64,000 nucleotides of DNA from Alphaproteobacteria bacterium (GCA_965228895.1 OZ245842.1:320001-384000); one strand, 5' to 3'; shown: positions 23,060 to 63,062, counted from the first letter of the stretch. Program-made: numbers and translations. Notes: a model not told the origin generated them from the sequence alone.

Positions 23060-23062
23060 CCA

Positions 23063-25424: not shown

Positions 25425-25452
25425 ATTTTCCATAATGCAGATTATGGCGCTC
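25425..25452 (+). repeat. dif-like (XerCD-type) site 1
   Basis: ATTTTCCATAA-TGCAGA-TTATGGCGCTC, 11-6-11 layout with CATAA/TTATG inner arms. Confidence 0.65.
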
Positions 25453-25579
25453 GAGAATGTAGGTGCAGAGTTAACAGGTCAGTCCCGAGTAAAATACAGA
25501 TGTCAGTTTTCAACCCTTTTGATGGGGTCTCAGGGATGATGCTAGCGACGGAATTGATGCTGATGAGTGGACGAGAAAT

Positions 25580-26410
25580 AGGCCTTCATCGCAAGGCTGT
25601 CGTTCGATGGCGCTGGAAGGTTTCAGTCCCTACTGATGTTGGAGGTTTCGTCGGCGCGGTGCGCTGCCAAGACATCTGGTGAGATTGGATCTCTCATTCG
25701 ATGGATGAGAGAGCGGGGTCGCCTGTGGGATATGTCGCGTATTCACGGAGAGAAGCCGAGGCTCGCTTTTGGCGTCAGCCAAGCAATAGTCTTGTGCAAC
25801 GTGCAGAAGCGACCCTCCGATACCGATCAGATGTCGAGGACTCTCTACCGAATCTAGACGGTTTGGACGATCGCCATCGACTTGCCGGTCATGCTGGCGT
25901 CGACGTTTCGCATTGTCAGAGTCCGCCGACCCTGTGTTTCGAACAGCAAAATCTGGTGCACCTTGACGTGACAGCCAACCCAATGGCCGAGTGGGCGGTA
26001 CATCAAGTGACCAAAGTGTCTCCATGCGATGCTGTACCCGGTCTCCTCGTCTGTGACCGAGATCAGAAATCCAACGGCATCCAGATTGTGCCGATAGAAT
26101 CTCAATCACCGTGAAAAACGAGACCGTGGAACGCGTGATGGTTTCGCTCCGTCAAGAGCGTCTGGTTCACGTCACGTCATCGTCTAAAATGAACCGCACC
26201 TACAGCACGTTTTCAAGGTCACCCCAACCCACCTCTACAGGTCCCGACCACTTCTGTCGCTGTACAGAAACTCTCCAGCCTCCTTAGGGACGTCGACGAG
26301 CTCGCAGGGCTGCATCGCTGCCCTTCCTGGTGTTGGGGCACAGCATCATCAATAAAAGAGGATGGCGGCGTGGTAGTCAGCACCTTCCGAGGGAATTGGC
26401 GTGTTGGAAA
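25580..26410 (+). pseudogene. Degenerate integrase-core (rve) transposase remnant
   Basis: Fragments HRKAVVRWRWK, SRIHGE, VTANPMAEW, DRD across frames, with stops and frameshifts. Confidence 0.6.
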
Positions 26411-26421
26411 GAGGCTATGGT

Positions 26422-27549
26422 CTAGCATTTAGAGGGCTGCTCAGAATCCTCCAAAAAGTCGAGCGCGAGGCATGACTCGGCGCTCCAGCCAACGGAACAT
26501 GTCATGCCTGGATTAAGCGTCAGGCCGCTTGTCGCAGGCACCATGGTCACGAAGTCATCCCTGCCGCAGAGTGACAATACAACGCGAGTGTGCAGGCCAA
26601 CATAGACCAGCTCCAGAACACGCGCGTGGAACACATTTGCCAAGGAATCTGCGGCGGGATTCCACACAACTTGCTCAGGTCGAACCGATAGCGTAGTCCG
26701 GTCTCCTACTGCATCAACCGCCACCGGCGTGGCTCGAATAATGGAGCCGTCGCTTACTTCGACGCCGCAAACACCTCCACCCATGGAGGCCACGTGGCCA
26801 TCAATGGAGTTGTTGTCACCCACAAATCGAGCGACGAACGTGGTGTCCGGTCGATCATAAATGGTCTTGGGCGCGGCAACTTGCTGCACAGCTCCTCCAT
26901 TGAACACGGCGATCCGGTCGGACATGGTCAGTGCTTCGGCCTGATCGTGGGTTACGTAGACCAAGGTTAGGTTGAGGTCATGATGCAGTTGGCGAATTTC
27001 CAACTGCATCTGTTCACGCAACTGCTTGTCGAGTGCGCCGAGCGGTTCGTCCATTAACACCAAGTCCGGTTCAAACACCAAAGCCCGCGCCAGCGCAACC
27101 CGTTGCTGCTGGCCACCTGACAGGGCACTAGGCTTTCGATGTTCATACCCGCTCAATCTAACCATAGCGGTCGCTCGGGCGACCCTGTCGTCGATCTCGG
27201 CTCGCCCCACGCCACGCACGCGCAACGGGAATCCAACATTACCAGCGACTGTCATGTTCGGAAACAACGCGTAGTTCTGGAACACTACACCAATGTTTCG
27301 GTCCTGCGGCAGTAGATGTGTAATAGGCCGTCCGCGCAACAGGATCTCGCCGACGGTCGGTTCCTCAAATCCGGCAAGCATCATCAGCGTTGTCGTTTTC
27401 CCTGAACCGGATGGGCCCAACAACGTCAGGAACTCCCCTTTCCGGACCTCAAGATCGAGGTCCCGAACGGCCATGACTCCACCTCCATAACTTTTGGAGA
27501 TGTTGCGATAACAGACCAGGTTTTCTGATGCGTTTGCCTCAGCGAACAT
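26422..27549 (-). CDS. Polyamine/amine ABC transporter ATP-binding protein (PotA-like)
   Basis: GPSGSGKT, LSGGQQQR, LMDEP, VTHDQ, TOBE-like C-terminus. Confidence 0.92.
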   Translation of the reverse strand: MFAEANASENLVCYRNISKSYGGGVMAVRDLDLEVRKGEFLTLLGPSGSGKTTTLMMLAGFEEPTVGEILLRGRPITHLLPQDRNIGVVFQNYALFPNMTVAGNVGFPLRVRGVGRAEIDDRVARATAMVRLSGYEHRKPSALSGGQQQRVALARALVFEPDLVLMDEPLGALDKQLREQMQLEIRQLHHDLNLTLVYVTHDQAEALTMSDRIAVFNGGAVQQVAAPKTIYDRPDTTFVARFVGDNNSIDGHVASMGGGVCGVEVSDGSIIRATPVAVDAVGDRTTLSVRPEQVVWNPAADSLANVFHARVLELVYVGLHTRVVLSLCGRDDFVTMVPATSGLTLNPGMTCSVGWSAESCLALDFLEDSEQPSKC

Positions 27550-27631
27550 TATGCTGATGCTCCAGTTAACAGTCGTGGCAGATGTGGCTTTACTGCGATC
27601 GACGGGCCGGACGCCCAGTGGATCGCCTTGA

Positions 27632-28294
27632 TCACGAGACCGTGCCTCTAGATTTCTTAGTCCGACGCATGCGCCGATCCGTGTCTTGCCAGCCCTTGAG
27701 CATCAAATCGACACGTCTTGCAACTAGCTGCTTGACCCGATTCGTCGTGTTTTGGCGGGTCGCGATGTGCGACATCCATTCGTAGTTGGCCATGCCGAAC
27801 AACGCAATCGCCATGTCGTCCGCCGGTAGTTTACGGCTCAACCGATCACGTTCGATCAAAGTCCGTAGCAATTTCGCAATCTGGTCGCAGTCCGCTTCGT
27901 CCCATTGCCGGAAGACGGTGCTGACTTCTGAGCCGGACGTAAGCCATGCCGAATAGGCGTGACACCAGAACGTCCTGTCCCCGATAGCGCTGGAAGAATC
28001 GATCATAGCGTGAAGCAGGTTGACCACGGCTACGACCGGATCATCGTCCGGATCGTCCAGCAATGGCTGGCGCTCGACTTTGACTCGCTCGGTCTGGTCA
28101 AGGATCAGCTCCAACAGCACGCCGTCCTTGGAGCCGAAGTAGTTGTAAATCGTGCCCGTCGCGATTTCGGCATGCTCGGCAATGGTTGTAATCCTGGTTT
28201 GCTCGTAACCACGCTCGTGAAATAGTTTTGCGGCCGCTTCCAGAATCTGCTGCCGCCGGGATGCCTTTTGCCGCGTTCTCAAACCATTCATCAC
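27632..28294 (-). CDS. TetR/AcrR family regulator
   Basis: ILEAAAKLF...GTIYNYFGSK HTH. Confidence 0.9.
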   Translation of the reverse strand: MMNGLRTRQKASRRQQILEAAAKLFHERGYEQTRITTIAEHAEIATGTIYNYFGSKDGVLLELILDQTERVKVERQPLLDDPDDDPVVAVVNLLHAMIDSSSAIGDRTFWCHAYSAWLTSGSEVSTVFRQWDEADCDQIAKLLRTLIERDRLSRKLPADDMAIALFGMANYEWMSHIATRQNTTNRVKQLVARRVDLMLKGWQDTDRRMRRTKKSRGTVS

Positions 28295-28350
28295 AGCAAC
28301 CTCGTCTATGATTGCACAGGTGCTACTATTCCGTTGTCAAGTTAGTTCGC

Positions 28351-29148
28351 TCAACGCCTTAGGGTGCCGTCTCGCCGTCTTAGGAGCCAGGGAGTCAGGA
28401 GCGCTGCTGTTAGCAGGACAAGCAGCGTCGAAACGGCGGCGACCACCGGGTCGGTGTCATCGCGGATCGCCTCCCACATTCTTTTGGGTAACGTCTGAAC
28501 GTTTCGTCCCGTCAGGAAAATGGTCAGGATCAATTCATCCCAAGAGATCAGAAATGCGAGCGCAACACCTGACAACACGCCGGGCCGTATAGTCGGTATC
28601 AGTACGTAACGCAGGAATTGTGAAACAGACGCACCCAGGCTGTGTGCCGCACGTGATAGGTTGGCATCAACCCGGGACAACGACACAAGCACTGCAATAA
28701 CGACAAAAGGCAGTGTGAATGTGGTGTGCGCAATGATTGTGCCGGCGAACGTATCATAAAGGCCAAGTCGGCTCCAGATGCGATACTCACCCAACGCGAG
28801 TACGACGGAGGGAATGACAATCGGAATCAGCGCAAACGTGAGCACAGCTTCCGAGAGCCTCGGATCGAGGCGCCATATACCGATCGCTCCCAGAGTTCCG
28901 AGAACAGTAGCCAGACAAGCTGTTCCCAAGGCCACTAGGATGCTTTGAAAAATTCCTCGCAACCAGCGTTCGCTCGGTGTCATTAGGGTTTCGTAGTGAT
29001 GAAGCGACAAATCGCCGACCGATGGCAGCGAGAGGTAGTCGGTGTTGGTTAGAGACACTGGGAAGGCGACGAACAGGGGCAACACCAGGTAGAGCGCCAA
29101 ACACCACGCGAGACCGCGCACAATACGATATCCGGTCGAAACGCGCAT
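28351..29148 (-). CDS. ABC transporter permease (PotC-like)
   Basis: Transmembrane helices, AAHSLGA EAA loop, SWDE; ATG 29148. Confidence 0.88.
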   Translation of the reverse strand: MRVSTGYRIVRGLAWCLALYLVLPLFVAFPVSLTNTDYLSLPSVGDLSLHHYETLMTPSERWLRGIFQSILVALGTACLATVLGTLGAIGIWRLDPRLSEAVLTFALIPIVIPSVVLALGEYRIWSRLGLYDTFAGTIIAHTTFTLPFVVIAVLVSLSRVDANLSRAAHSLGASVSQFLRYVLIPTIRPGVLSGVALAFLISWDELILTIFLTGRNVQTLPKRMWEAIRDDTDPVVAAVSTLLVLLTAALLTPWLLRRRDGTLRR

Positions 29149-29150
29149 TC

Positions 29151-29999
29151 CTACGAATGTCCGATCAGCAAGCGATGTAAGCGGATGAGCCTTGACATGA
29201 CATAGAGCGCCAGCGCGACAGCGGCCAACATCACAGTCGCCAGTGCCGCGGGCATGCCCCACCTTGCAGCTTGCAGGACTTGCAAACTGATGTACTCGGC
29301 AACCATGACGGTCTTCCCGCCGCCCAAGAGCGCCGGTGTGATGAAGAAGCCGAGCGAAACAATAAAGACTATGACCGAGGCGCCCACGACGCCGGGAATT
29401 GACTGTGGCAAATAGACGAACAGAAAGGCTTGCCACGGACGTGCACCAAGGCTCTTTGCGGCCTGCACAAGATGTCGATCGATAGCGCTGAAGTTTCCGA
29501 TCATCAACAGGATTGCAGCCGGCATAAGCAGGTGAACCATGCCGATAAAGACGCCAAACTCGTTGCGCATCATGCGAATGGGGCTGTCGATCAGGCCGAA
29601 TTCCAATAGCCAGAGGTTCACAACACCATTACTTCTCAGCAACATGATCCACGCGAATGCTCGAATCACGGCTGATAGCCAGAAAGACAGCAGAACGCTC
29701 AGCAGGAGCCACTGTAGTACACGTCCGCGCTCGTGAACCATGACGTAGGCCACGACGTATGATGCGATGATGGTCAATGCCGTCGTCACTACGCTGATTC
29801 GGGCCGTAGTTAGGAGCAACTGATGGACTCCGCTGTCGGTCAACAGTCTCGCATAGTTGCCCAGACTGAGATCGGGCTCGGTCACACTGGTGACGGCGAC
29901 GCTAACCAACGGCCAGCCGACAAACACCGCAAGAAACACGACCATGGGCGCGGTGAGCAGCAGATAAGCCCGGCCCTGATCGCTCGGTCTAAACCACAT
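29151..29999 (-). CDS. ABC transporter permease (PotB-like)
   Basis: QAAKSLGA EAA loop, TPALLGG. Confidence 0.88.
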   Translation of the reverse strand: MWFRPSDQGRAYLLLTAPMVVFLAVFVGWPLVSVAVTSVTEPDLSLGNYARLLTDSGVHQLLLTTARISVVTTALTIIASYVVAYVMVHERGRVLQWLLLSVLLSFWLSAVIRAFAWIMLLRSNGVVNLWLLEFGLIDSPIRMMRNEFGVFIGMVHLLMPAAILLMIGNFSAIDRHLVQAAKSLGARPWQAFLFVYLPQSIPGVVGASVIVFIVSLGFFITPALLGGGKTVMVAEYISLQVLQAARWGMPAALATVMLAAVALALYVMSRLIRLHRLLIGHS

Positions 30000-30032
30000 C
30001 GTTTCGGACTATGTCTTTCTGCAGCGGTTTGA

Positions 30033-31145
30033 CTATGCCACAACTCTTTCAAGAAACAGCCCGACGAGCATTTCTTCGTGCTCGGCGTAGTACGTGTCGT
30101 CCCAAAGAACTTGCCTAGAGAACCACTCGGGATTATGCGGATCGTAACTTTGACCTGCTGGGCTCAGACGATCGAATACCTGAGGGTTGCCTGGGCCGAT
30201 CTTGGCGTCCTCACAAACGGCGATTTGAACGTCGGCTTCCATGGTCCAGTCAATAAATCGCATCGCCATCTCTGTGCCCCACGGAGCGCCCTTTGGCACT
30301 ATCCAGGATGCGGCACCCATCAAACCTTGATTCCAGCTCCAGCTTGTCCGGCCGTCGGTCTCTTCTGCAGCATTGGCCGCGCGTGATGCAAATGTCGCTG
30401 CCATCGCGACTTCGCCATCACGCAACATGGCGTGACCTTCGGCGATACTGTTGAAATAGATTGATTGATCCTTGATCGTCAGGAACTTCGCAATTGCACG
30501 CTCCGTATCCAGCGGATAAAGCTCCTCCGGTGGGACCCCATCGGCGAGCAACGCCGCTTCCCAGGCGTACCCATACTTCCAGATCGCTCGCATACCGGGA
30601 AACTTCTCCACATTGAAGAAGTCGGCCCAAGAATTCGGTGTGGTCTCAACGTAGCGCGAAGCGTCATACGCCATTACAACACTGTACCAGCCCCAACATG
30701 CGCCGTAGTCCAGTGCGCCATCAGGATAGATATTGCTCTTGTCGACGACACTGTAGTCGATCGGCTCCAGCAAGTCGGCGGATGACAACGAGATTGAAGT
30801 GTAGCTGTTCGAGTCAACGACATCCCAGATCACTTGATCTTCCTCGACCATGGCGCGCAATCGGCCTGGCAATGGGCCGGAGTTATCGACCGCCGTGCTA
30901 ACGCCGTTATCGATCCCGAATGGCTCGACCTGGAACTTTTGCTGTGCTTCGGCTGTCGTGCCTCCCCATAACGCAACGACAAAGTCATCGTCGGCGCGGG
31001 TCGGCACGATCGTTGGCCCAACGAGCAGCGGCGCGATACCGGCTGCGCCGGCCAGCCTGAAAAAGTGGCGCCGGTCGATACGACCAGCACGCAGCTCCCT
31101 GCTCAAGAATGCTCTCCACTGGCGCTCGAATGACATAGCCTTCAT
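30033..31145 (-). CDS. ABC transporter substrate-binding protein (PotD/SBP_bac_8 type), Tat signal
   Basis: DRRHFF twin-arginine motif, WGG, WDVV, ALLADGV; GGAGG RBS. Confidence 0.88.
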   Translation of the reverse strand: MKAMSFERQWRAFLSRELRAGRIDRRHFFRLAGAAGIAPLLVGPTIVPTRADDDFVVALWGGTTAEAQQKFQVEPFGIDNGVSTAVDNSGPLPGRLRAMVEEDQVIWDVVDSNSYTSISLSSADLLEPIDYSVVDKSNIYPDGALDYGACWGWYSVVMAYDASRYVETTPNSWADFFNVEKFPGMRAIWKYGYAWEAALLADGVPPEELYPLDTERAIAKFLTIKDQSIYFNSIAEGHAMLRDGEVAMAATFASRAANAAEETDGRTSWSWNQGLMGAASWIVPKGAPWGTEMAMRFIDWTMEADVQIAVCEDAKIGPGNPQVFDRLSPAGQSYDPHNPEWFSRQVLWDDTYYAEHEEMLVGLFLERVVA

Positions 31146-31416
31146 GTGAGTTTCCTCCCAATTGCCCCGCGGTCCATTTGGCGACGTTCTCTTGCTTCGC
31201 CCAAACGACCGATGTGATCCGTTTTGTTGTGGCACAACCTCCGACATGCACCATCACAGGCTTTCCATGTCGACAAAATGAACTAGTTACAATAATGAAA
31301 TTGATTTTATTTTCAAGTCAAGAAGTAGCCTTGCAGCTTGACAATCGGAAGTGTGGTGGCCGTGATGATGTGTCATCAAGGCGCAGTTACCTTCGGTGCG
31401 GCGTTCATGAGGTCTC

Positions 31417-32061
31417 ATGCAGAAGTCGAGACGGACTCCAATCCAGCAGCGCGGGCGTCGCACGGTTGATCAGATTCTCGATGCAACCGAATCGCTCATG
31501 GCGACAACTCGGCTTGACGCGATCTCGACAAACTTGATTGCCGAGCACGTTGGTCTTCCGATCGGCACGATCTATCACTACTTTTCGAACAAACATGAAG
31601 TGTTCTACGCCCTCGCTGAGCGTGCCTTTGAGGAGTATGTGCAGCTGCTCGAGGATGCATCCCGCCCAGTCGATCTCAAGCGACCGCTGCCGTCGTACTA
31701 CGGACGCCTAATTGACGAGTTGGCAATCTGGTGGGTGCACAAAAAGGACTTCATGGTGTTGTGGCGGTTGATTGACCAACCTTCGGAGATGCGCGATGCG
31801 TCGCGTGCTCACGCCCGGCAGATTGCTGAGCGTATGGGCCGCTGGATCTCGTTTCACCACCCATCCGTACCTCGTGGCACAGTTTTGACGATGGGGCGTA
31901 TCATACATTTGGCGATTGCATCGGCGCTCGACACATTGTTTTTTGAGCCACCTGCTGCACGCAAAGCAATTCTTCGCGAGCTTAAAGCAATGATCGTCGG
32001 CTATCTCACCTGTTCTTTGGCTGACGTATCACGTAAGGACGATCCGAGCCGGACTCGTTGA
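31417..32061 (+). CDS. TetR/AcrR family regulator
   Basis: PIQQRGRRTVDQILDA...GTIYHYFSNK. Confidence 0.9.
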   Translation: MQKSRRTPIQQRGRRTVDQILDATESLMATTRLDAISTNLIAEHVGLPIGTIYHYFSNKHEVFYALAERAFEEYVQLLEDASRPVDLKRPLPSYYGRLIDELAIWWVHKKDFMVLWRLIDQPSEMRDASRAHARQIAERMGRWISFHHPSVPRGTVLTMGRIIHLAIASALDTLFFEPPAARKAILRELKAMIVGYLTCSLADVSRKDDPSRTR

Positions 32062-32085
32062 TCGAGGGGCGCATCTTTTGCGCCG

Positions 32086-33279
32086 TCATCGTGCCCGTAG
32101 CTCGGCTCCCGTCGCCTCGACAACCATTTTCTGAAAGTGATGTACCGCACCTTCCCAGTAGGGTGAGAATCGCGGTCCAATACCCAGCTCGTCGCGTAGG
32201 ACATTGTTTGCCTGAACACCATGAATGAATTTTAGGTCCTGGCTCGCGACAAAGACGAGACCGTCGACAAGTTCGCGCCGCGCAGTCTCCAGGTCCGACG
32301 TCATGGCCTCTTCACCGCAGAAATAGTGGTGAAATCCAAGAAAGGTCTTGTCGGGCCCATCTGGAGAAAAGACCGTCATAACCACATGGTCGGGCTTCAC
32401 GACCATGATCGCGGTTGGGAAGATATTGATGATATCGATAAAGCTACCTCCCGACTCGCCATTACCTGCCCTGCGCGGTAAACCCGGCATTTGCCCTTTG
32501 ATGGACGGCGCTTCGACGTCGTCAACGTCAATGTCGAGCGTATTGCGTGTCGCCGCAAAACAGTTCGCATGGGTCGAGATTTCTACGCTTTGCCCATTGA
32601 CGCCAACCATCAGTTCGGGATGGCCGAATGGGAGATGATAGTCTTCCATAGCACCCTCGATGGACACCTTCCAATTCCCTGGGTAGCTGCCTTGCCACAT
32701 GCCGCCATGGCGAAGATTGGTCATGTCATAGTCGTGAAGATAGCTCTCGACAGGCGAGATATGATCCTCGAACGCCGGCGCCCTACCATCAAGATTCACA
32801 AAAATGTAGTCGAGCCAGTGTGCCGAGCGTACCTCTACCAGTGATAGATCTTCTCTGCGAATTCCCTTGGAGGTACCAACTTTCGGCCCGCCAATGTTTG
32901 GGGTGGTCACGAGTCTGCCATCGAGATCATAGGTCCATCCGTGCCAAGGGCAGTGGATCTTTCCACTGCTCTTACACGGCTCGCTAACGAGTTTGGTGCA
33001 GCGATGGCGGCAGACGTTGTGGAACACCTTGATGGATCCATTCTTCGTACGCGAAACGAGTAGAGGCCGACCGGCGAGGTCGACCGGCAACATATCTCCG
33101 GGATCGGGAACTTGAGCGCCAACACCGATCGCGCACCAGCTCCGGGGAAACAAATCCCGCTGCTCGAGCGAATAGAACTCCGCACCATAGGCACGGCCGG
33201 GCAATCCAACTGCCGATTCGATCGGTTGGAAAAGGACGTTGAGATCCTCGCTGCTCAGAAAATCGTTGAGACAGACCAT
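32086..33279 (-). CDS. Rieske non-heme iron oxygenase alpha subunit (choline monooxygenase/CntA-like group)
   Basis: CRH...CPWH Rieske motif; NWK...EDYH...H iron site. Confidence 0.88.
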   Translation of the reverse strand: MVCLNDFLSSEDLNVLFQPIESAVGLPGRAYGAEFYSLEQRDLFPRSWCAIGVGAQVPDPGDMLPVDLAGRPLLVSRTKNGSIKVFHNVCRHRCTKLVSEPCKSSGKIHCPWHGWTYDLDGRLVTTPNIGGPKVGTSKGIRREDLSLVEVRSAHWLDYIFVNLDGRAPAFEDHISPVESYLHDYDMTNLRHGGMWQGSYPGNWKVSIEGAMEDYHLPFGHPELMVGVNGQSVEISTHANCFAATRNTLDIDVDDVEAPSIKGQMPGLPRRAGNGESGGSFIDIINIFPTAIMVVKPDHVVMTVFSPDGPDKTFLGFHHYFCGEEAMTSDLETARRELVDGLVFVASQDLKFIHGVQANNVLRDELGIGPRFSPYWEGAVHHFQKMVVEATGAELRAR

Positions 33280-33394
33280 CGGAGTTCCTTTCAAAGAGCT
33301 GGAATTGATAGAAACCGAGTAACAGCTCGATATTCGATCTTTGTTTTTGAATTGTCAAATCGATACCGTGAGACCGAATGCAATGGCACGCGGA

Positions 33395-33900
33395 CTAGGT
33401 CGGGGACTCATAGACACCGAGCCTTAGGCCGATGGAGTGAGTCTGGCGAATGCGAGATATCGGGCGACAAGCTTGTCGTGCCGGTTGGCAACGCGGTGAC
33501 ACGACTTGATCTTGTTGAAGAACCGTTCAATCAGGCTGCAATCCCTGCAACAGCTAGAAACTGAAGCGTACTGGGATCTTTCGGTTGCGTCCTGGCGGGA
33601 TATTGGCCCATGCGCGCCTTTGGGCGACAAAGGCCCTGATCCAGTGCACGTCGCAGACGCCAGCGTACCGCCAGCGAACGAAGAGAGTGCAGCAGGTAGC
33701 GTCAGGATCGAACTGATGGGCAAATCGCGCCATGGTGCACCGGATCGTAGAGCCCGGAAGATGCCGTTGAGAACACGCCGGTCATCGACGCGAGGCGAGC
33801 CACGCGGCTTGTTAGGCAAGGTGTATTGGAGGAACGCCCAATCTCGATTTGTCGGGGGCATAGCGCGTGGATCGGGCTCCCTTTTTATGAAGCTTGAATC
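33395..33900 (-). mobile_element. IS5-family (IS427-like) transposase remnant
   Basis: PRVDDRRVLNGI...GAPWRDLP, IERFFNKIK...NRHDK; internal deletion; ATGAGTCCCCGACCTAG end. Confidence 0.75.
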
Positions 33901-34038
33901 ACGCGAGCGTCAATTGCCGCAAGCCACAAGTCGATGTTGCGAAGACACCACGAAGCGGACTCAGTGGCAGTCCAGATGGATGCTGCAATTTTATACCCAA
34001 GCAAACAATGCCGGAAATGACTCCCGCCGCGCCTTGTC

Positions 34039-34896: not shown

Positions 34897-34922
34897 CTCC
34901 TATCTTCTTTCCACACTGTCTA

Positions 34923-56039: not shown

Positions 56040-57019
56040 TGTCGAGCGCCGGCAACGTCGTTGCGAACGGCAGACGCAATGTAGGGAACCTGGTCGTTTC
56101 GTTCGGCTTGATCGGTGTTCTCTTTCTGGTTGTCGTCGGGGTGTCCGTGGTGGCGCCGGCATTCTTGTCGATCGACAACATTGCAAACACCGTGCGCTCC
56201 GCCAGCGTAGCCGGGCTCATGTTCCTTGGTTTGACATGGGTCTTCGCCGTCGGCGAGATCGATGTCAGTTTTGTCGCGATCGCGGCGCTGACAAACATGA
56301 TCGCCGCGGGCTTGGTCGCGGGAGGGCATGCGTCTTGGGATGTCGCGTTGCTGGTCGGCTTTGCGGCTGGCATCGTCTTCGGCATCGTCAATGGAGTCTT
56401 GATCGCCTATCTCGGGCTCCCGTCACTCGTCACGACGATCGCCGTTGGCGGCATCGCCGGTGCGTTCGCCAATTCGATCGGAGAGGGATACTCCATTGCG
56501 ATCCCGGCCGCGGAGCACCTGAAGTTCATCACCGAAACGACTCTCGGACCTATTCCCCTATTGGCGCCGGTTTGCGGCGCCGCGTTCCTGGTGGCCTGGT
56601 ATGTGCAAGAGCGGCTGACGATTGGTCACTACATCTATGCAATTGCCGAGAACCGCGAAGCCGTGGTCGAGGCCGGTGTGCCGGTCAAGAAGATCGTCTG
56701 CCTTTTGTTCGTGTTTTCAGCCATGTGCGCCAGCTTGGGAGGTGTTCTGTTGACGTTGGAGTTGACGTCCGGTCAACCCTCGATCGCGGCATCGTTCTTT
56801 CTCGAAGGACTCACGGCAGTATTGTTGGGCGGAGCCATGCTGAAACTCGGTAAGCCCAACGTGATTGGAACATTGGTGAGTGTCTTGATACTCGCGACGC
56901 TAGTCCGCGGCGGTGCGTTGCTGGGTTTGCAGGATTCTTGGCTCCAGATATTCAAAGGCGTCCTGTTGATTTCGGGAGTCATGACGATCATCTGGATTAA
57001 TCACAAAAGTAAACAGTGA
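56039..57019 (+). CDS. Sugar ABC transporter permease
   Basis: GEIDVS, YAIAENREAVVEAG; ATG overlaps the upstream TGA. Confidence 0.9.
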   Translation: MSSAGNVVANGRRNVGNLVVSFGLIGVLFLVVVGVSVVAPAFLSIDNIANTVRSASVAGLMFLGLTWVFAVGEIDVSFVAIAALTNMIAAGLVAGGHASWDVALLVGFAAGIVFGIVNGVLIAYLGLPSLVTTIAVGGIAGAFANSIGEGYSIAIPAAEHLKFITETTLGPIPLLAPVCGAAFLVAWYVQERLTIGHYIYAIAENREAVVEAGVPVKKIVCLLFVFSAMCASLGGVLLTLELTSGQPSIAASFFLEGLTAVLLGGAMLKLGKPNVIGTLVSVLILATLVRGGALLGLQDSWLQIFKGVLLISGVMTIIWINHKSKQ

Positions 57020-57095
57020 AGCCGCAACACAATACAAAGAGCGTTCCGTTAGAGAACTACAACTATGCATTTCAGGCTGATCGATTGTATGAATA

Positions 57096-57890
57096 ATGGA
57101 TGAGCTATCTGACAACAAGAGTGTGCTGAACAAGGTCGCGAGCATTCTTGACGCTTTCGGTCAGCCGCCGCATAAGTTCACGTTCACGGATGTCTACGAG
57201 CAGACCGATATTTCAAAGGCCAGCATTCATCGATTGATGGGCCAGCTCGTCGATGCCGGCTTCCTGGAGAAGAGTGGTACCGGTAAGACTTACCAGTTGG
57301 GTAGACGTCTCAACCGCTTGCTGCATTTCAATGCCTCTGGCGCGCTGCTTGAACCGATGTTCAACACCGAACTTCAGTCGGTGGCCGATGCCCTGGGTGA
57401 AGCGGCGTTCGCTGCTCGATTGAGTGGAAACGAAGTCGAACTCTTCGAGGTGTGTGGCCCATCCGCGAAGAACAGCTCCTATCTGCATCCCGGTCTCGGC
57501 ATTCGCCCGATTCACGCATGCTCGTCCGCGAAGTGCATTCTCGCCTATCAAGACGAGGAAGAGATCACGCGTTTGCTTGAGACCAATCTTGCCAAAATCG
57601 CGACAACCGCTAAGCGGACCAAGAAGGATCTACAGAGTGAGTTACTGGAGATTCGGCGAGTTGGATTTGCCGTGTGTGATGAGGAATTGGAGGAGGCCGT
57701 GTACTCCATTGCGTTCCCCATCATGCTTCAGGAGGCGGGCGTCATGTATTCTATCGGCATTGCCGCACCCAAAAGCCGGATCTCCGATGCGACTCTGACA
57801 GTAGTCCGGGATCGGCTGTCGTTAGCTGCCAGCCAAATCGGCAGCTTGCTGGGAACCAGCGTCGAACCTGTGGCAGCACCGCAGGATTGA
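57096..57890 (+). CDS. IclR family regulator
   Basis: N-terminal HTH, HACSSAK, GFAVCDEE. Confidence 0.9.
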   Translation: MDELSDNKSVLNKVASILDAFGQPPHKFTFTDVYEQTDISKASIHRLMGQLVDAGFLEKSGTGKTYQLGRRLNRLLHFNASGALLEPMFNTELQSVADALGEAAFAARLSGNEVELFEVCGPSAKNSSYLHPGLGIRPIHACSSAKCILAYQDEEEITRLLETNLAKIATTAKRTKKDLQSELLEIRRVGFAVCDEELEEAVYSIAFPIMLQEAGVMYSIGIAAPKSRISDATLTVVRDRLSLAASQIGSLLGTSVEPVAAPQD

Positions 57891-58089
57891 GCTGAGCAGT
57901 AGTATAGTTGAACGAAGGGCCAACCTCGCGCTGCGAGATAAGTCCGGGCAAAGAGCGTGCTAAAAATCTCGCTGATTGGGATTTTTGCTTTCTGAACGGG
58001 ACTTTATTCTTCTCTGTAAGGCCGATCTTCGATACCCTCTGACAAAACGGCAGGAATGGCTGGCCCGCCACAACGATGGGAGGTGCTCA

Positions 58090-59064
58090 ATGACAAGCGG
58101 TCTGCAAATGTCGCGTGACCAACTGGAAGACGCTTACGAGCGCATGATCACCATGCGGGAGTTTGACGAGCGCATGCGCGAGGAATTCGCCGCCGGGAGC
58201 ATTCCAGGGTTTGTCCACCTTTATTGCGGCGAGGAGGCTTCTGGCGTCGGGGTGTGCCTGGCATTGGGTGACAAGGACGTCATCTCGTCGACGCACCGCG
58301 GCCACGGACATTGCATCGCCAAGGGCTGCGACGTCGGCGGCATGGTCAAAGAAATCATGGGGCGACGCGATGGTTTGTGCGGTGGCAAAGGTGGTTCGAT
58401 GCACATTGCCGACCTGGCGAAGGGAATGCTCGGCGCGAACGGGATTGTCGGTGCCGGTGGGCCATTGGCCTGCGGGGCTGCACTAACTGCAAAGGCCCAG
58501 GGCACGGGCGGCGTGTCGGTTTGTTTCTACGGAGACGGCGCGTCGAACCAAGGCGCCATACTTGAGAGCTACAACCTGGCCAAGATATGGAATCTGCCGG
58601 TGATCTTCATCTGTGAGGACAATGGTTATGCGGAAGCGACAGCGTCCACTTGGTCGGTATCAGGTTCACAGGTCAGACGAGCCGACGCCTTTGATATGCC
58701 GGCCAAGGAAGTCGATGGCAGAGACTTCTTCGCCGTTTTCGAAGCTGCATCCGAGATGATCGAGCGAGCCCGTGCGGGCAATGGACCTTCGCTGCTTCAC
58801 GTCAAGCTCGACAGGTACTATGGCCACTACGAGGGCGATGCGCAAACCTATCGCGGCGAGGAAGAGGTCGAGGACGCTCGGGCGCAAGATCCGTTGCAGG
58901 CATTTCGCGACCGCGTGATGGAGACATCCTTGTTGGATGCAGAAACACTCGCATCCATTGACGCAAAAGTCAGTTCACTTCTCGAAGAAGCGATCGCGGC
59001 GGCGAAAGAGAGCCCCATGCCGACGGAAGCCGATCTGTTGACAGACGTCTACTCGGCGTACTGA
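58090..59064 (+). CDS. acoA: Acetoin dehydrogenase-type TPP-dependent E1 alpha
   Basis: PGFVHLY, STHRGHGH, GDGASN, YYGHYEGD. Confidence 0.85.
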   Translation: MTSGLQMSRDQLEDAYERMITMREFDERMREEFAAGSIPGFVHLYCGEEASGVGVCLALGDKDVISSTHRGHGHCIAKGCDVGGMVKEIMGRRDGLCGGKGGSMHIADLAKGMLGANGIVGAGGPLACGAALTAKAQGTGGVSVCFYGDGASNQGAILESYNLAKIWNLPVIFICEDNGYAEATASTWSVSGSQVRRADAFDMPAKEVDGRDFFAVFEAASEMIERARAGNGPSLLHVKLDRYYGHYEGDAQTYRGEEEVEDARAQDPLQAFRDRVMETSLLDAETLASIDAKVSSLLEEAIAAAKESPMPTEADLLTDVYSAY

Positions 59065-59082
59065 GCGGGAGGGACGAATCGG

Positions 59083-60105
59083 ATGCCAGTCATCAGTTTC
59101 AGGCAAGCAATCAACGATGCGCTCAGCGGTGAGATGGAGCGGGACCCCACCGTGATCGTCATGGGAGAGGACATCTCAGGCGGCACGGGCGCCGCCGGTG
59201 AACAGGATGCCTGGGGTGGACCAATGGGTGTCACCAAGGGGTTGTACACGAAGTTTGGTCCCGACCGGGTTATGGACACGCACCTTGCAGAAATGTCGTT
59301 CGTTGGCGCGGCAGTCGGTGCCGCGGCAACGGGTATGCGGCCGGTCGTGGAGTTGATGTTTGTCGATTTCATTGGCGTCTGTCTGGACCAGCTCCTTAAT
59401 CAGGCTGCGAAGTTCCGTTACATGTTCGGAGGAAAGGCAACCACCCCGCTTGTCGTCCGCACGATGTACGGCGCGGGTCTCAACGCGGCCGCGCAGCATT
59501 CGCAATCGCTCTATCCGTTGGTCACGCACATTCCCGGTTTGAAGACGGTGATCCCGTCCGGGCCCTACGATGCCAAGGGTCTGCTTCTGCAAGCCATCCG
59601 GGACAATGATCCCGTCATCTTCTTCGAGCATAAGGCGATGTACGAAATGGAGGAGGACGTACCCGACGAGCCCTATGTCATCTCCTTCGGCGAGGCCAAT
59701 GTCGCGCGAGAGGGCGACGACGCTACAATTGTTGCCTTTGGTCGTATGGTCTCGATGGCGCATGAAGCAGCCGACATCCTGGCAAAGGACGGGATTGAAT
59801 GCACCATCGTCGATCCAAGGACGAGTTCCCCGCTCGATGAGGAATGCATCATCGAAACCGTCGAGGAAACCGGGCGGCTCGTTGTCGTTGACGAGAGCAA
59901 TCCGCGCTGTTCGCTGGCAACGGACATCGTCTCGCTTGTGACGACAAATGCGTTCTCCGCACTAAAAGGCCCGCCGCAGGTGGTGACCGCACCTCACTGT
60001 CCGGTTCCGTTCTCACCGACACTGGAGCAAGCCTACATTCCCTCGCCCGAGAAGATCGTTGCGGCGGTGCGGCGAACCATGGGGAAGGAAGGAGACGCCG
60101 CGTAA
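59083..60105 (+). CDS. acoB: Acetoin dehydrogenase-type E1 beta
   Basis: DAWGG insertion, NQAAKFRYMFGG, AQHSQ. Confidence 0.85.
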   Translation: MPVISFRQAINDALSGEMERDPTVIVMGEDISGGTGAAGEQDAWGGPMGVTKGLYTKFGPDRVMDTHLAEMSFVGAAVGAAATGMRPVVELMFVDFIGVCLDQLLNQAAKFRYMFGGKATTPLVVRTMYGAGLNAAAQHSQSLYPLVTHIPGLKTVIPSGPYDAKGLLLQAIRDNDPVIFFEHKAMYEMEEDVPDEPYVISFGEANVAREGDDATIVAFGRMVSMAHEAADILAKDGIECTIVDPRTSSPLDEECIIETVEETGRLVVVDESNPRCSLATDIVSLVTTNAFSALKGPPQVVTAPHCPVPFSPTLEQAYIPSPEKIVAAVRRTMGKEGDAA

Positions 60106-60168
60106 GCGGATCCTCGCCGTCACCGAACCACTCGTTAGATCAACGTCTAGACTCCGAGGAATCCGACC

Positions 60169-61290
60169 ATGGGTGAGATCTTGCCGATAACAATGCCGAA
60201 ATGGGGGCTCGCGATGGATGAGGGCATTGTCGCGATGTGGTCTGCCGAAGAGGGCGACGAGATTGCCACCGGCCAGGAGATTCTGGATATCGAGACATCG
60301 AAGGTCGCGAATGCTTACGAAAGCCCAGTCAGCGGAACGTTACGGCGAAAGGTGGCTGCTGAGGGCGATGTCTTACCTGTCGGCGGGCTAATCGGCGTTG
60401 TCGCTGGCGCGGATGTTCCGGATGGCGACATCGATGCGTTCATCGAGGCGTTCAACGAGAGTTTCGTTCCGCCCGAAAGCTCATCGGACACGACCTCGTC
60501 TGCGGACGCCATCGAGGTCGATGGCCGACGCATCGTCTACCAGATGGCCGGCCCCAACCAAGACGAGGCGATCATCTTCGTCCATGGCTTCGGTTCGGAC
60601 CACAAGTCCTGGCTCATGAATCAGGCGGAGCTGGCCGACTTGATAGCGACATTCGCGGTCGACCTTCCTGGCCACGGGGCATCGGAGAAAGCGATTGAGG
60701 ACGCGTCGGCCGATAGTCTTGCGGACACGGTCGCATCATTCGTCAGCACCATGGAACTTGGCCCCGTTCACTTGGTTGGACATTCTCTCGGCGCAGCCGT
60801 CGTATCGATTGTCGCACACAAGATGCCGGATTCAGTGCGCTCTCTATCGCTGATCGCGCCGGCGGGTCTCGGCGGCACGATTTCGGGCGAGTTTCTCGAC
60901 GGTTTCCTCACCCAAACTCGCGCGAAGAAACTGCGCGCTACACTTGACATGCTGGTTGCGGACCCTGGCCTCATCTCGGCGGAAATGGTTGAGGAGATCG
61001 TGAAGTTCAAGCGCCTGGACGGGGCGCAATCGGCGATCGAAGCTGTCCGGAATGCCAACTTTCCGAGTGATACACAAACTGTCGATGTTGCAGACATTCT
61101 GAAAGCACTGGAGATTCCGATTACAATCATCATCGGCTCAGAAGACCGGATCATTCAGCATGATCCGACTTTCCTACGCGACCTCGGGACCCTGATCGAG
61201 ATCAAAGGAGCGGGTCACATCCCTCACATGGAAAAGGCGGTAGAGGTAAACACGGCGCTCTACGATTTTATCAGTGCCAACATCTCGTAG
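60169..61290 (+). CDS. acoC: AcoC-type dihydrolipoamide acetyltransferase (lipoyl domain + alpha/beta hydrolase)
   Basis: MPKWGL, ETSK lipoyl lysine, HGFG, GHSLG. Confidence 0.85.
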   Translation: MGEILPITMPKWGLAMDEGIVAMWSAEEGDEIATGQEILDIETSKVANAYESPVSGTLRRKVAAEGDVLPVGGLIGVVAGADVPDGDIDAFIEAFNESFVPPESSSDTTSSADAIEVDGRRIVYQMAGPNQDEAIIFVHGFGSDHKSWLMNQAELADLIATFAVDLPGHGASEKAIEDASADSLADTVASFVSTMELGPVHLVGHSLGAAVVSIVAHKMPDSVRSLSLIAPAGLGGTISGEFLDGFLTQTRAKKLRATLDMLVADPGLISAEMVEEIVKFKRLDGAQSAIEAVRNANFPSDTQTVDVADILKALEIPITIIIGSEDRIIQHDPTFLRDLGTLIEIKGAGHIPHMEKAVEVNTALYDFISANIS

Positions 61291-61565
61291 CTGGTAAGTC
61301 TTCAAGAAGTCCCTCTGCCTTCTCAAAAACTAGATTCCATCGAAATCTGTTGGGGGTTTGACTGCGGGCCGTCAATCTCGATTGCACGATCATCCCCGGT
61401 GTCATTGTCAGAGCAAACCGGATTACGACGGGTTGAAGTGATCCATAACATCCGGCAACTCACGTTCCATTTTGATTCTTCAACACCTGATCCGGGGCGC
61501 TCGAATAGTAGAAATTAGAATGGCAGGCCAAGATGATTGAGGGCCCGCGCATTTTGCTAGGCGGC

Positions 61566-61756
61566 TTTCGCTGTTCCGGCGAGAAGTTTCCCTGATCCAC
61601 TGCGGAATTTCCCTGTTCGGCCCAACAATTTCCCTGTTCCGTCGCGTAGGGAAATTGTCTCTAAGATGTTGAAAACACTGCAAGAATTGGGACGAAGGAC
61701 TCAGAACTTGGCGAAATTCGATGATATTCCCTGTATTTTCCCTGTTAACAGGGAAA
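61566..61756. repeat. TTTCCCTG repeat array with 21-bp period plus a 20-bp palindrome at the island right end
   Basis: Copies start at 61566, 61587, 61608, 61629; TTTCCCTGTTAACAGGGAAA at 61737-61756. Confidence 0.8.
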
Positions 61757-61797
61757 TCACCGCAGAGACGGGTTCGCAGCAGACTGCCTGCACCACC

Positions 61798-61825
61798 ATT
61801 TTCCATAATGCAGACTATGACGCTG
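61798..61825 (+). repeat. dif-like site 3, directly abutting attR
   Basis: ATTTTCCATAA-TGCAGA-CTATGACGCTG. Confidence 0.6.
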
Positions 61826-62055
61826 ACTGTGATCGATACGATAGCGAAGAGCAGCCAATCGGGTACGATCCCGTGTGCCCCTTGGCCCTGTCTTTTGGGC
61901 AGCTTGATGGTCCAGGCGGCATTGGCATCCATGGACGTTGCTTGTTATCTCGCTTGTAGAGTTCGAGCATCTTTGGACTTTTCGGTGCAGAGGCCGTGGT
62001 TCCAATCTTGATGGTTCCGCGCCGTTGCCGCCGTTGATCAACCCTTTGGGTCGAT

Positions 62056-62826
62056 CTACTTGGTCGGCTTATCACCGACGGGGAGGGGGCGGCCGGCACA
62101 GACGTCCACATAGCGGGTGACGGCGCCTTCCATGCCGTAGATCAAGGCATCCGCCGTCAGGCAGTGACCGATTGACACTTCCAGGAGGTTTGGCAGGGCG
62201 GCGACCAGAGGCGGGAGGTTGTCGAGTGTCAGATCGTGACCGGCGTTCAGGCCAAGTTCCTGGGCCGCCGCAGCCTGGCCGGTGGCAATGACACGATCGA
62301 ACTCCCTGCGCCGAATATCCGCCTCCAAGGCGCCGCCATAGGGGCCGGTGTAGATTTCGATGCGGTCGGCGCCGACCTCGCGGGCCAGGGTCGCAGCGCT
62401 TGGGTCAGGGTCGACGAATATAGAGACACGCATGCCGCCGTCTATGAGGCGCGCGATGATGTCGGTTAGAAAGCTCCGATGATAGCTGATATCCCACCCG
62501 TGGTCGGAGGTTGCCTGGCGGATGTCGTCCGGTACCAAGGTCACCTGATTGGGGCGAACGCGTTCGACGAGTTCGATGAAGCGGGCGTCCGGGTTTCCCT
62601 CGATGTTAAATTCCCGATCGGGAAAGTCGGCTTCGATCATGTCGGCGAGTTGTGTGACATCAGATCGGCGGATGTGACGCTCGTCCGGCCGAGGGTGAAC
62701 GGTAATCCCCGCTGCCCCCGCCGAAAGTGCTGTCCGTGACAGGTCGACGACCGAGGGCCACGGCAGGTTCCGTCTGTTCCGTAGCTGTGCGATGGCATTG
62801 ACGTTGGCCGATAGGGATACTGGCAT
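62056..62826 (-). CDS. pdxJ: Pyridoxine 5'-phosphate synthase
   Basis: ITVHPRPDERHI, NIEG, TLVPD, EIYTG, NAGHDL, EVSIGH. Confidence 0.95.
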   Translation of the reverse strand: MPVSLSANVNAIAQLRNRRNLPWPSVVDLSRTALSAGAAGITVHPRPDERHIRRSDVTQLADMIEADFPDREFNIEGNPDARFIELVERVRPNQVTLVPDDIRQATSDHGWDISYHRSFLTDIIARLIDGGMRVSIFVDPDPSAATLAREVGADRIEIYTGPYGGALEADIRRREFDRVIATGQAAAAQELGLNAGHDLTLDNLPPLVAALPNLLEVSIGHCLTADALIYGMEGAVTRYVDVCAGRPLPVGDKPTK

Positions 62827-63034
62827 CGAATTTCCTCGCCGGAAGTAACAGGAAAGGATTGGCGTATGGCATTCAAACTTTACTCGTTCGCAACTCGTAG
62901 CATTGTCATGGTCCGGTCAGCTGGAATGCGTCAAATACGGAGCGGGCTATGAGTTCGATAATTGTCGCCGCTTCAGTCTATCCAAGATCACATTGTCGAC
63001 GTACGGATCTTCATTTCGAACCTGATCGGCTTCG

Positions 63035-63062
63035 TTTTTCCATAATGTAGATTATGGGATCA
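63035..63062 (+). repeat. dif-like site 4 (closest of the four to E. coli dif in its core)
   Basis: TTTTTCCATAA-TGTAGA-TTATGGGATCA versus E. coli GGTGCGCATAA-TGTATA-TTATGTTAAAT. Confidence 0.65.

Follow-up and report, generated by a model that had tools for sequence, protein, structure and literature searches.

We analysed a 64-kb stretch of DNA from an alphaproteobacterium (GCA_965228895.1, OZ245842.1; hereafter the window, of 64,000 nucleotides), which corresponds to positions 320,001-384,000 of a single 5.53-Mb contig with a G+C content of 62.4% (genome G000). A preliminary description of the window had drawn attention to four dif-like sites placed between blocks of cargo genes. Our results suggest that these sites open a chromosomal array of Xer-type sites bounding mobile cargo modules, and that the modules have been gathered by an Xer-type accretion process akin to that of integrative mobile elements exploiting Xer (IMEX) or of dif modules, with direct repeats, an accessory arm, a link to tRNA genes and a location far from the replication terminus. 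We estimate the probability of this reading at roughly 0.6. It is built on five sets of observations, namely the anatomy of the sites, their identity with dif, the structure of the arrays, the presence of synteny breakpoints at the sites and the absence of any other recombinase from the arrays.

Two arrays of dif-like cores

Four 28-bp dif-like sites, all on the + strand, start at window positions 25425, 46728, 61798 and 63035. The 16-mer TTTTCCATAATGYAGA (≤2 mismatches) has four matches in the window, as compared with a mean of 0.02 in dinucleotide-preserving shuffles, none of which contained four (0/100). One arm of the sites is nearly invariant (ATTTTCCATAA, or TTTTTCCATAA at the fourth site), three sites have TGCAGA as spacer and the fourth has TGTAGA, and the other arm retains only (T)TATG. 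Written in full, core 1 (25425..25452, +; identified by pattern search) is ATTTTCCATAA-TGCAGA-TTATGGCGCTC, core 2 (46728..46755, +) is ATTTTCCATAA-TGCAGA-ATATGGAACTT, core 3 (61798..61825, +) is ATTTTCCATAA-TGCAGA-CTATGACGCTG and core 4 (63035..63062, +) is TTTTTCCATAA-TGTAGA-TTATGGGATCA. These exact sequences and the shuffle test confirm the coordinates, the common orientation and the invariant and variable arms given in the preliminary description, and the Pfam annotation places the cargo blocks named there between the directly repeated sites. The four-site picture is real, but it understated the extent of the system, which comprises 18 cores in two arrays together with a repeat of about 250 bp that had not been seen.

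The set of 18 cores was curated from pattern scans and an nhmmer profile run over the whole genome. Array 1 contains 14 cores, all on the + strand (345,425-561,838), which occupy 217 kb downstream of a tRNA-Met gene at a spacing of 1.2-35 kb. Array 2 contains four cores, all on the - strand (4,224,334-4,295,107), within about 80 kb downstream of a tRNA-Ser(GGA) gene. Together the two arrays amount to ~300 kb, i.e. about 5% of the genome. Their G+C content (0.597 and 0.584) is lower than that of the genome (0.624), the 5th percentile of 216-kb windows being 0.605. The cumulative GC skew is lowest at 5.05 Mb and peaks at 2.354 Mb, and the invariant arm of the cores points to the origin in both arrays. 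A genome-wide motif scan set against the GC skew, as had been proposed with the preliminary description, thus assigns all 18 cores to two arrays remote from the terminus, the first at 0.35-0.56 Mb and the second at 4.21-4.30 Mb, which lie ~0.8-1 Mb from the origin and ~1.9 Mb from dif. Two further matches with 2 mismatches (4,523,801 and 4,540,628) lack the second arm and were taken as chance occurrences.

Anatomy of the cores and their identity with dif

All 18 cores fit an 11-6-11 layout with an inner palindrome CATAA/TTATG. Within the arm that we identify below as the XerD arm, the agreement per position is 13-17/18; CATAA is kept in 15-17 of the cores and the complete sequence ATTTTCCATAA is present without change (11/11) in five. 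The spacer is the best-kept part (17-18/18 per position), with TGCAGA in 15 of the 18 cores. On the other side, the inner TTATG shows an agreement of 16-17/18, which falls to 8-11/18 in the outer part of the XerC arm and to 6-9/18 in the flanks. Four cores (345,425, 383,035, 402,640 and 427,145) share nothing but the core sequence with the others. In Xer sites the spacer makes no specificity contacts, but it must match between the partners, and the conservation profile of the cores is what one would expect if the sites have to pair among themselves.

The dif pattern TTCCATAA-N6-TTATGCGA (≤1 mismatch) was found in 30 of 33 genomes of the family, with no match to a reversed control. There is one match per genome, with the exception of G000 (four) and of a genome of the same genus, G002 (two), and the spacers are TATATA, TATACC, TATGTA, TATGCC, TATATC or TCAATA. 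The same search of another genome that proved to contain cores (G045, see below) gave no match. The copy at 2,268,576 in G000, ATTTTCCATAA-TATATA-TTATGCGACTT, is the chromosomal dif, since the genes on both sides of it are syntenic with those around a copy in G002 and its distance to the GC-skew maximum (2.354 Mb) is 85 kb. The array cores are not single-copy at the terminus, unlike this chromosomal dif, yet their invariant arm has the same sequence as the XerD arm of the host dif and of the single-copy dif sites of the family. The dif-like character ascribed to the sites in the preliminary description is therefore well founded.

This comparison, together with the insertion sequence (IS) remnants of the IS1202 type found 5 bp from the variable arm (see below), also settles the assignment of the arms, which had been left ambiguous by eye: the invariant arm corresponds, as judged from sequence, to the XerD side (its sequence being that of the XerD arm in reverse complement) and the variable arm to the XerC side. 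In naming the arms we relied on those of Escherichia coli dif. Read on the + strand, core 1 thus consists of XerD arm, spacer and XerC arm, and the canonical C-spacer-D order appears on the - strand. The XerD arm of the cores is also among those tabulated, as TTATGGAAAAT, in a study of the IS1202 family (PMC10132070).

The TGCAGA spacer occurs with full dif-type arms in other alphaproteobacterial contigs (loci L004, L007, L010 and L011). In L007 and L010 the site is preceded by the gene end behind which dif lies in G000. TGCAGA may therefore be the native dif spacer of some other lineages.

Two additional observations concern dif-type sites outside the arrays. A second site with both dif arms perfect (ATTTTCCATAA…TTATGCGACTT) and the spacer TGTAGC is located at 2,598,514-2,598,541 (locus L016, ~6514-6541, - strand), 330 kb from dif and in the same orientation, within a stretch of 56-58% G+C. 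It is surrounded by genes for an HNH endonuclease, a T5orf172 protein and a methyltransferase and by genes of no assigned function, and may have served an integrated phage-like element as its attachment site. In G002 (contig C28, 29,597-31,299; L048), a 1.7-kb insert with one gene on the opposite strand abuts the XerC side of the true dif; the corresponding place in G000 holds 51 bp.

An accessory repeat on the XerD side

About half of the cores form the 3' end of a ~250-bp accessory repeat (acc), which adjoins the XerD arm. A full acc is present at eight cores of G000 (381,798, 399,780, 451,356, 463,536, 501,917, 527,045, 4,237,508 and 4,251,535) and a partial one at four (366,728, 537,486, 561,838 and 4,224,334); six cores have none (345,425, 383,035, 402,640, 427,145, 466,540 and 4,295,107). 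The copies are 72-93% identical. In the window, a full acc precedes core 3 (61584..61797, +) and contains the motif AATTTCCCTGTT eight times, together with the palindrome TTCCCTGTTAACAGGGAA and a tail similar to a tRNA 3' end (GAGACGGGTTCGCAGCAGACTGCCTGCACCACC), and a vestigial acc tail lies in front of core 2 (46697..46727, +; nhmmer match at genome positions 366697-366760, profile positions 186-252).

The motif AATTTCCCTGTT occurs in 4-8 copies per acc (45 in seven aligned elements, 33 of them in one direction). It agrees with the XerD arm ATTTTCCATAA at 7 of 11 positions, mostly the outer ones, a likeness that may serve as a weak lead only. The palindrome TTCCCTGTTAACAGGGAA (≤3 mismatches) has ten matches in the genome, all inside acc copies; we therefore rejected a role as an operator elsewhere in the genome, and the matches gave no clue to a binding protein.

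The tail (GAGACGGGTTCGCAGCAGACTGCCCGCACC) resembles a generic tRNA 3' end, with a best local match of 18/24 to tRNA-Thr(TGT). It equals neither tRNA-Met nor tRNA-Ser, and its likeness to either is limited to the trailer. Two kinds of trailer follow it: ACC, as found after tRNA-Met in G002, and GCCAGTCTCC plus 10 nt, as found after tRNA-Ser(GGA) in G000. Because an Rfam scan of the whole window found only tRNA, acc is not a known RNA family. A distant-match search of 72,556 plasmid records with acc plus core gave no match, so that no vehicle was found in this collection.

The acc also occurs outside arrays. Solitary acc-like elements (loci L050-L055, in five other genomes of the family) end in …CACCACCATTTTTCC and then diverge, so that they retain the outer half of the XerD arm but not the rest of the core. 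One of these genomes, G005, carries an acc relic and has only the two Xer genes. In G000 itself, a lone copy of the tRNA-like tail, with no repeats and no core, is found at 934,746-934,783.

IS1202-family remnants on the XerC side

In all six places where it was seen (345,425, 366,728, 427,145 and 4,237,508 in G000, and loci L006 and L008 in G045), a conserved sequence (TGTAGGCGCAG…) is separated from the variable arm by exactly 5 bp; its first triplet is TGT in five of the six. The 5-bp gaps have six different sequences (GAGAA, ACGAC, TGGTG, AACAC, CTGGC and ACTGT), which points to separate insertion events. The longest open reading frame (ORF) among these remnants (112 aa, N-terminal, at 4,237,508) matched transposases of the ISNCY family, including the ISMex6 family, in tblastn (35-50% identity). 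In the window, a left-end remnant (25458..25682, +) starts with TGT 5 bp after the variable arm of core 1 and is assigned to the IS1202 family (ISNCY) by analogy with the 4,237,508 copy and with published members (PMC10132070). A decayed element (46761..47238, +) starts in the same manner after core 2 and contains a C-terminal fragment of an rve-type transposase (~47080-47238). No right inverted repeats were found within 4 kb, and the rve profile had no match at the places of the remnants. The IS1202-family elements at the cores are thus remnants.

According to Harmer, Pong and Hall (2023, PMC10132070), members of the IS1202 family have TGT…ACA ends and are found next to pdif and dif sites, at a distance of 5 bp from the XerC side and consistently in one orientation; the alphaproteobacterial members ISRel10, ISRel26 and ISMex6 adjoin sites with XerD arms TTATGGAAC…, and the authors suggested that the transposase may contact site-bound XerC. 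By analogy, the remnants provide independent support for the variable arm as the XerC side and suggest that the cores are seen as dif-like in vivo. They would also independently extend the published "dif-hunter" behaviour to marine Alphaproteobacteria.

Two further copies of an rve transposase, at 4,267,466 (+) and 4,288,528 (-), have equal scores and inverse orientation and bracket ~21 kb inside array 2; they possibly represent a composite transposon.

Breakpoints, a close strain and distribution

G000 was compared by blastn with contig C4 of G002 and contig C76 of a second congener, G001. Backbone (139,395-169,258 of G002, equivalent to 320,030-291,210 of G000) is followed in G002 by three blocks, 122,302-138,975, 110,393-122,385 and 46,702-58,711, which correspond to 399,798-383,520, 463,291-451,292 and 526,763-514,677 of G000, respectively. 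In G001, 20,034-36,000 corresponds to 399,492-383,520 and 36,097-36,752 to 561,710-561,056. At these places G000 has 63.5 kb (window 30-63520, almost the whole window) and 51.5 kb (399,798-451,292) of its own in comparison with G002. Modules that are adjacent in G002 lie 51 kb apart in G000, and their order differs again in G001. The position of core 4 corresponds to that of the first, tRNA-adjacent core of G002.

As had been anticipated in the preliminary description, the synteny breakpoints map to the sites: within the array, five of six block ends in the G002-G000 comparison and three of four in the G001-G000 comparison lie ≤500 bp from a core or acc. The naive binomial probabilities of such coincidence (6e-6 and 1e-3, respectively) are rough figures, given that the block ends were defined by the analyst, the genomes are related and one end is common to both comparisons.

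Four sequencing runs were also compared, all as contigs, in which circles and rare deletions are invisible. Contigs of strain X3, which bear another organism label and come from another study, show five differences over window positions 44001-61756, as against 36 differences and six gaps over 61770-64000. The step in divergence falls at acc and core 3, where the short-read contigs also end. It fits a recent exchange bounded by core 3, which might have been either site-specific or homologous. The spacer of core 4 in this strain is TGCAGA. An apparent joint in X3 between 47069 and 61772 (with 739 letters between them) was rejected as a deletion, since it represents a paralogous locus. X4 (of low depth) is identical to the window, and X1 (a marine metagenome) contributed short pieces at 90-95%.

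Genome G045, to which loci L003, L006, L008 and L012 belong, contains 11 cores on four contigs; they are direct within each contig and accompanied by the same acc. Its cargo is unrelated to that of G000, apart from the flank of core 3 on the side of pdxJ, which on contig C127 follows acc and core behind a different module. The orientation of the cores is uniform also in G002 contig C4 (6/6 on the - strand) and G045 contig C106 (5/5 on the + strand). Among 30 relatives scanned, an array was found only in G002, and of 400 genomes sampled from the class (308 genera), two had a single match each and none had an array.

Recombinases, tRNA genes and serine-recombinase islands

No Phage_integrase domain (Pfam PF00589) is encoded in the window, in agreement with the preliminary description, and the same holds for the arrays of G000, G002 and G045 and their surroundings. 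The four matches in G000 all lie elsewhere and comprise two Xer proteins and two other proteins (at 1.23 and 5.26 Mb). G002 has three matches, none on contigs C4 or C9, and G045 has eight, none in the array or on a core-bearing contig. The XerD-like and XerC-like proteins of G000 score 323.6 bits with TIGR02225 and 318.2 bits with TIGR02224, each slightly below the equivalog cut-off; the XerD-like protein is above the cut-off of NF001399, an NCBIfam model of a tyrosine recombinase subfamily. The NCBIfam integron-integrase models reached 120 bits (cut-off 265), a score obtained with the Xer proteins alone. As candidates for a shared dedicated recombinase, the additional integrases of G000 (1.23 Mb and 5.26 Mb) were rejected, being 21% identical to the one of G002.

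The location of the sites next to a tRNA, also pointed out previously, is borne out: array 1 begins at tRNA-Met(CAT) (window 1892..1968, +; detected by ARAGORN and Rfam), and in G002 this tRNA ends in …GGGCCCACCA, followed by CC and then by TCTTTCCATAATGCAGATTATC, so that the first core lies 2 nt after the tRNA. No ortholog of tRNA-Met was found in G001, an assembly of 500 contigs (best match 74% over 81 nt). Array 2 is headed by tRNA-Ser(GGA) at position 4,310,749.

In the window, a 23.5-kb island (1969..25424) that is absent from G002 fits exactly between the 3' end of the tRNA and the XerD arm of core 1 and encodes a large serine recombinase (2271-4067, -; Pfam). A related island (4,295,135-4,310,748) lies between the trailer of tRNA-Ser(GGA) and the core at 4,295,107, and a third one, on contig C178 of G045 (~2,066-17,631), interrupts an internal site where the acc trailer meets the XerD arm. 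Each of the three directly adjoins the first base of an XerD arm on one side and, on the other, a tRNA or pseudo-tRNA end together with its trailer; two of them begin with AACTAG. Judging from these junctions, islands of large serine recombinases seem to target the outer edge of the dif-like site. A fourth serine recombinase is encoded just inside array 2.

The preliminary description had proposed that the serine-recombinase island mobilises the modules. This view is not supported: G002 (97% complete) has an array of six cores and 0 matches to the Resolvase domain (PF00239), and the island of G000 is a separate insertion between tRNA and core 1. It follows that the islands use the site as a target and that the arrays do not need them. 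The island of the window is not part of the cassette system.

The lone acc tail at 934,746 is situated 57 kb downstream of tRNA-Ser(CGA) and its own serine-recombinase island, and it adjoins a terminase-like gene homologous to that of the island in the window.

Proposed mechanism and points against it

In the mechanism that we propose, a module would carry its own weak XerC arm in front and, at the rear, acc (~250 bp), the XerD arm and the spacer TGCAGA. A circular module would enter by recombining with any array site that has the same spacer, a module would be excised again when two direct sites recombine, and repeated rounds would yield the two trains of 14 and four cores. The catalysts would be the host XerC and XerD, and the difference between the array spacer and that of the host dif (TATATA) would keep the array from recombining with dif. 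Given the distance of the arrays from the septal FtsK zone, we infer that acc may stand in for FtsK activation or impose selectivity or topology on the resolution. Two further mobile elements would use the site as a landmark, namely the IS1202-family elements on the XerC side (at 5 bp) and the serine-recombinase islands at the outer XerD edge. Binding and catalysis by Xer, the circular intermediates and the function of acc are all predictions from nucleotide sequence.

A more far-reaching version is put forward tentatively, as possible rather than probable. It supposes that the XerCD pair runs an integron-like chromosomal platform which moves large catabolic modules at tRNA-linked arrays, that the arm of AATTTCCCTGTT repeats recruits extra XerD or an unknown host factor and so renders the reaction independent of FtsK, that the foreign spacer insulates the platform from dimer resolution, and that two unrelated kinds of element have evolved to home on the edges of the site.

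Several points weigh against Xer-mediated accretion. The outer XerC arm of the cores is not conserved and differs from the GCGACTT of dif, and the XerC arm as a whole does not equal the host dif arm TTATGCGACTT; the binding of XerC to the cores may thus be weak or absent. FtsK-dependent activation of XerD is not expected ~1.9 Mb from dif, so that an FtsK-independent route must be assumed. The accessory sequences of cer and psi are on the XerC side, whereas acc is on the XerD side. The acc tail, with its likeness to a tRNA 3' end, and its trailer variants, which match those of tRNA-Met (…ACCACC) and tRNA-Ser (…GCCAGTCTCC), are the classical footprint of a tRNA-targeting integrase and are not predicted by a crossover within the spacer. 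Five other genomes of the family contain solitary acc copies that lack an intact core. Some block ends lie off the sites (at G000 position 510,133 in the comparison with G002 and 561,056 in that with G001), and G001 carries two modules side by side with no core between them. Finally, direct 250-bp repeats could break synteny by ordinary homologous recombination.

Alternative explanations

The main rival of Xer-mediated accretion is a tRNA-targeting tyrosine integrase of the lambda type, since lost or acting in trans, of which the arrays would be fossil or cis-mobilisable remains (resembling cis-mobilisable elements, CIMEs). The acc would then be an arm with arm-type sites for integrase or excisionase, its tail a duplicated tRNA end and the core the integrase core site. 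The 4-8 copies of AATTTCCCTGTT per acc and the tRNA-like tail (18/24 to tRNA-Thr), the correspondence of the trailers with real trailers of tRNA-Met and tRNA-Ser, the start of both arrays at tRNA genes and the solitary acc elements in other genera are what such an origin would leave behind. Against this, no integrase gene is located in or beside any array of the three genomes, G005 combines its acc relic with only the two Xer genes, and the extra integrases of G000 and G002 are unrelated. Moreover, the core arm is the XerD arm of the host dif, and an IS family that hunts for dif recognises the sites. The tRNA-like tail is also unable to replace the 3' ends of tRNA-Met or tRNA-Ser, which means that the crossover must lie 3' of the tRNA. 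Altogether, we regard this explanation as unlikely, although it has to be taken seriously.

The cores might alternatively be dif-like sequences within a dispersed 250-bp repeat that undergo no site-specific reaction today, the modules being moved by RecA-dependent recombination. The acc copies are long and similar enough for that purpose, breakpoints occur in acc as well as in the core, and G001 retains modules without cores. This explanation does not account for the acc-less cores, which are conserved over just 22 bp, or for the spacer being their best-kept part (17-18/18), since homologous recombination would not select the spacer. The uniform orientation within each array, the confinement to two tRNA-linked regions and the lack of any other genome with more than one match in the class sample of 400 genomes are likewise unfavourable to it, and we consider it improbable.

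That the sites are attachment sites of the tRNA-adjacent large serine recombinases, which would then move the modules, is suggested by the exact placement of the three islands (at tRNA-Met and tRNA-Ser(GGA) in G000 and on C178 in G045) and by the fourth recombinase gene just inside array 2. The well-kept cores of G002, a genome with 0 PF00239 matches, the 22-bp conserved block with dif symmetry, which is shorter than the attachment sites of serine integrases (about 40-50 bp), and the fact that each island is a single insertion at one edge of one core, as expected when the site is the target, make this very improbable.

A transcription-factor operator in front of co-regulated catabolic genes, as the inverted repeat CCATAA-N6-TTATGG in intergenic DNA beside catabolic operons might suggest, is hardly credible, since core 3 lies between convergent genes (60169-61290, +, and pdxJ, 62056-62826, -) and so not in a promoter position, the orientation of the cores is constant regardless of the direction of neighbouring genes, the cargo is unrelated between genomes, and the motif, far from being common upstream of co-regulated genes (which the preliminary description had named as the finding that would speak against site-specific recombination), is confined to the 18 copies in two arrays, dif and one second dif-like site.

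Relation to known systems

Xer-mediated accretion, as proposed here, has much in common with IMEX (CTXphi, TLCphi and VGJphi of Vibrio, and the gonococcal genetic island), which possess no recombinase of their own, have direct dif-like sites with one degenerate arm and form tandem arrays by successive integration, with host XerCD as the presumed enzyme (partly after PMC5357621, PMC9226527 and PMC6744903). The Vibrio IMEX phages retain the XerC arm, whereas in the cores the XerD arm is retained. The arrays also differ in their pure-cargo modules and 250-bp accessory arm. IMEX enter the chromosomal dif at the terminus, whereas the arrays are tRNA-linked, lie ~1.9 Mb from dif and have a spacer unlike that of the host dif.

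The dif modules of Acinetobacter are small, mostly plasmid-borne and carry resistance genes, whereas the modules described here are large catabolic and transport blocks, linked to tRNA genes and provided with an accessory arm. The two sites flanking an Acinetobacter module are inverted relative to each other (C/D then D/C), whereas all 14 and all four sites of our arrays are direct. The two systems agree in that cargo is bounded by extra dif-like sites and that linear arrays of several modules are formed, also on chromosomes as dif module islands (PMC12907356 and PMC10132070). They agree, too, in the better conservation of the XerD arm as compared with the XerC arm and in IS1202-family elements 5 bp from the XerC side (PMC10132070).

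The arrays resemble integrons in the stacking, in one orientation, of promoterless or self-contained cassettes at short imperfect sites, and in the entry of new cassettes at the array head, where the distance from the tRNA to the shared module is 38 kb greater in G000 than in G002. They differ from integrons in having no intI, attI or attC, in modules 10-100 times larger and in that internal sites also take insertions.

The sites cer and psi consist of an Xer core with ~180-250 bp of accessory DNA, which makes the reaction FtsK-independent and intramolecular, and the combination of core and acc is similar to this arrangement. The accessory DNA of cer and psi lies beside the XerC arm and is bound by PepA with ArgR or ArcA, whereas acc lies beside the XerD arm and is made of AATTTCCCTGTT repeats. 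Moreover, cer and psi are single plasmid sites and do not form cassette boundaries.

Tandem accretion of islands and CIMEs at tRNA genes involves a location at tRNA 3' ends, direct repeats and elements devoid of integrase. Our arrays share all of these features, as well as a tRNA-end-like sequence at the right junctions. They differ in that the core of the repeat consists of the XerD arm of the host dif and a 6-bp spacer, that 14 junctions stand in a row and that no integrase was found in three genomes.

Chromosomal dif module islands were reported in 2026 (PMC12907356). In the literature retrieved on IMEX, Acinetobacter dif modules and IS1202, exclusive of supplementary site tables, we found no direct dif-like arrays with accessory arms at tRNA genes.

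If Xer drives the arrays, then enzymes of dimer resolution would build and reshuffle hundreds of kilobases of metabolic genes with no recombinase encoded by the elements, and ~300 kb, or 5% of the genome of a free-living marine alphaproteobacterium, would have been assembled in this way. The mobility that exploits Xer would thus reach beyond phages at dif and small resistance modules of Acinetobacter plasmids, and the arrays could offer a testable answer to how FtsK-independent reactions on the XerD side are organised. In practical terms, the 22-bp core plus acc may serve as a marker that delimits flexible genomic islands in such genomes.

Modules and gene content

The modules range from 1 to 35 kb and are pure cargo, in which no phage or replication genes and no XafT-like gene were found. 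No gene family recurred beside the sites either (Xaf-like, excisionase or integrase; ORFs within 3 kb of 35 sites), apart from generic paralogues such as ABC, Rieske and short-chain dehydrogenase/reductase (SDR) proteins.

The first module of the window (module A, 21.3 kb, 25453..46727) encodes, according to Pfam, an ABC transporter, two TetR regulators, three Rieske oxygenases, OpuAC, Box-like proteins, a CoA ligase and a BoxR-like regulator with helix-turn-helix (HTH) and shikimate-kinase domains. Module B (15.0 kb, 46756..61797) carries genes for OsmC, a glyoxalase, SDRs, an enoyl-CoA hydratase, a sugar ABC transporter and acetoin-dehydrogenase-like (Aco-like) proteins. It is followed by a mini-module of 1.2 kb (61826..63034), with no acc at its right end, that contains pdxJ alone (62056-62826, -). 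This is the sole pdxJ match in the genome, and the same query found none in G001 or G002; a gene of vitamin B6 synthesis thus seems to have been acquired as a single-gene cassette. The next module begins at 63063 (63063..64000 in the window) and extends to genome position 399,779; it is common to G002 and G001, with homology (blastn) from window position 63520 onwards.

Besides its serine recombinase, the island between tRNA-Met and core 1, which carries defence-like genes, encodes (all from Pfam) a terminase-like protein (4884-6368), a methylase (6761-8161), an OLD-like ATPase and a UvrD helicase (12531-16105, +), a PIN protein (PIN_12; 17913-19103) and a STAND NTPase of 1296 aa (19169-23059). 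The OLD-family ATPase/TOPRIM protein and the UvrD-like helicase that follows it form a pair resembling Gabija.

The Box-like genes of module A form a Box-type benzoyl-CoA cluster (37175-44995, -), whose regulator, with HTH_3 and shikimate-kinase domains, has an architecture like that of BoxR/BzdR. The cluster also includes a 525-aa ORF (39738-41315) with no Pfam match at 1e-5.

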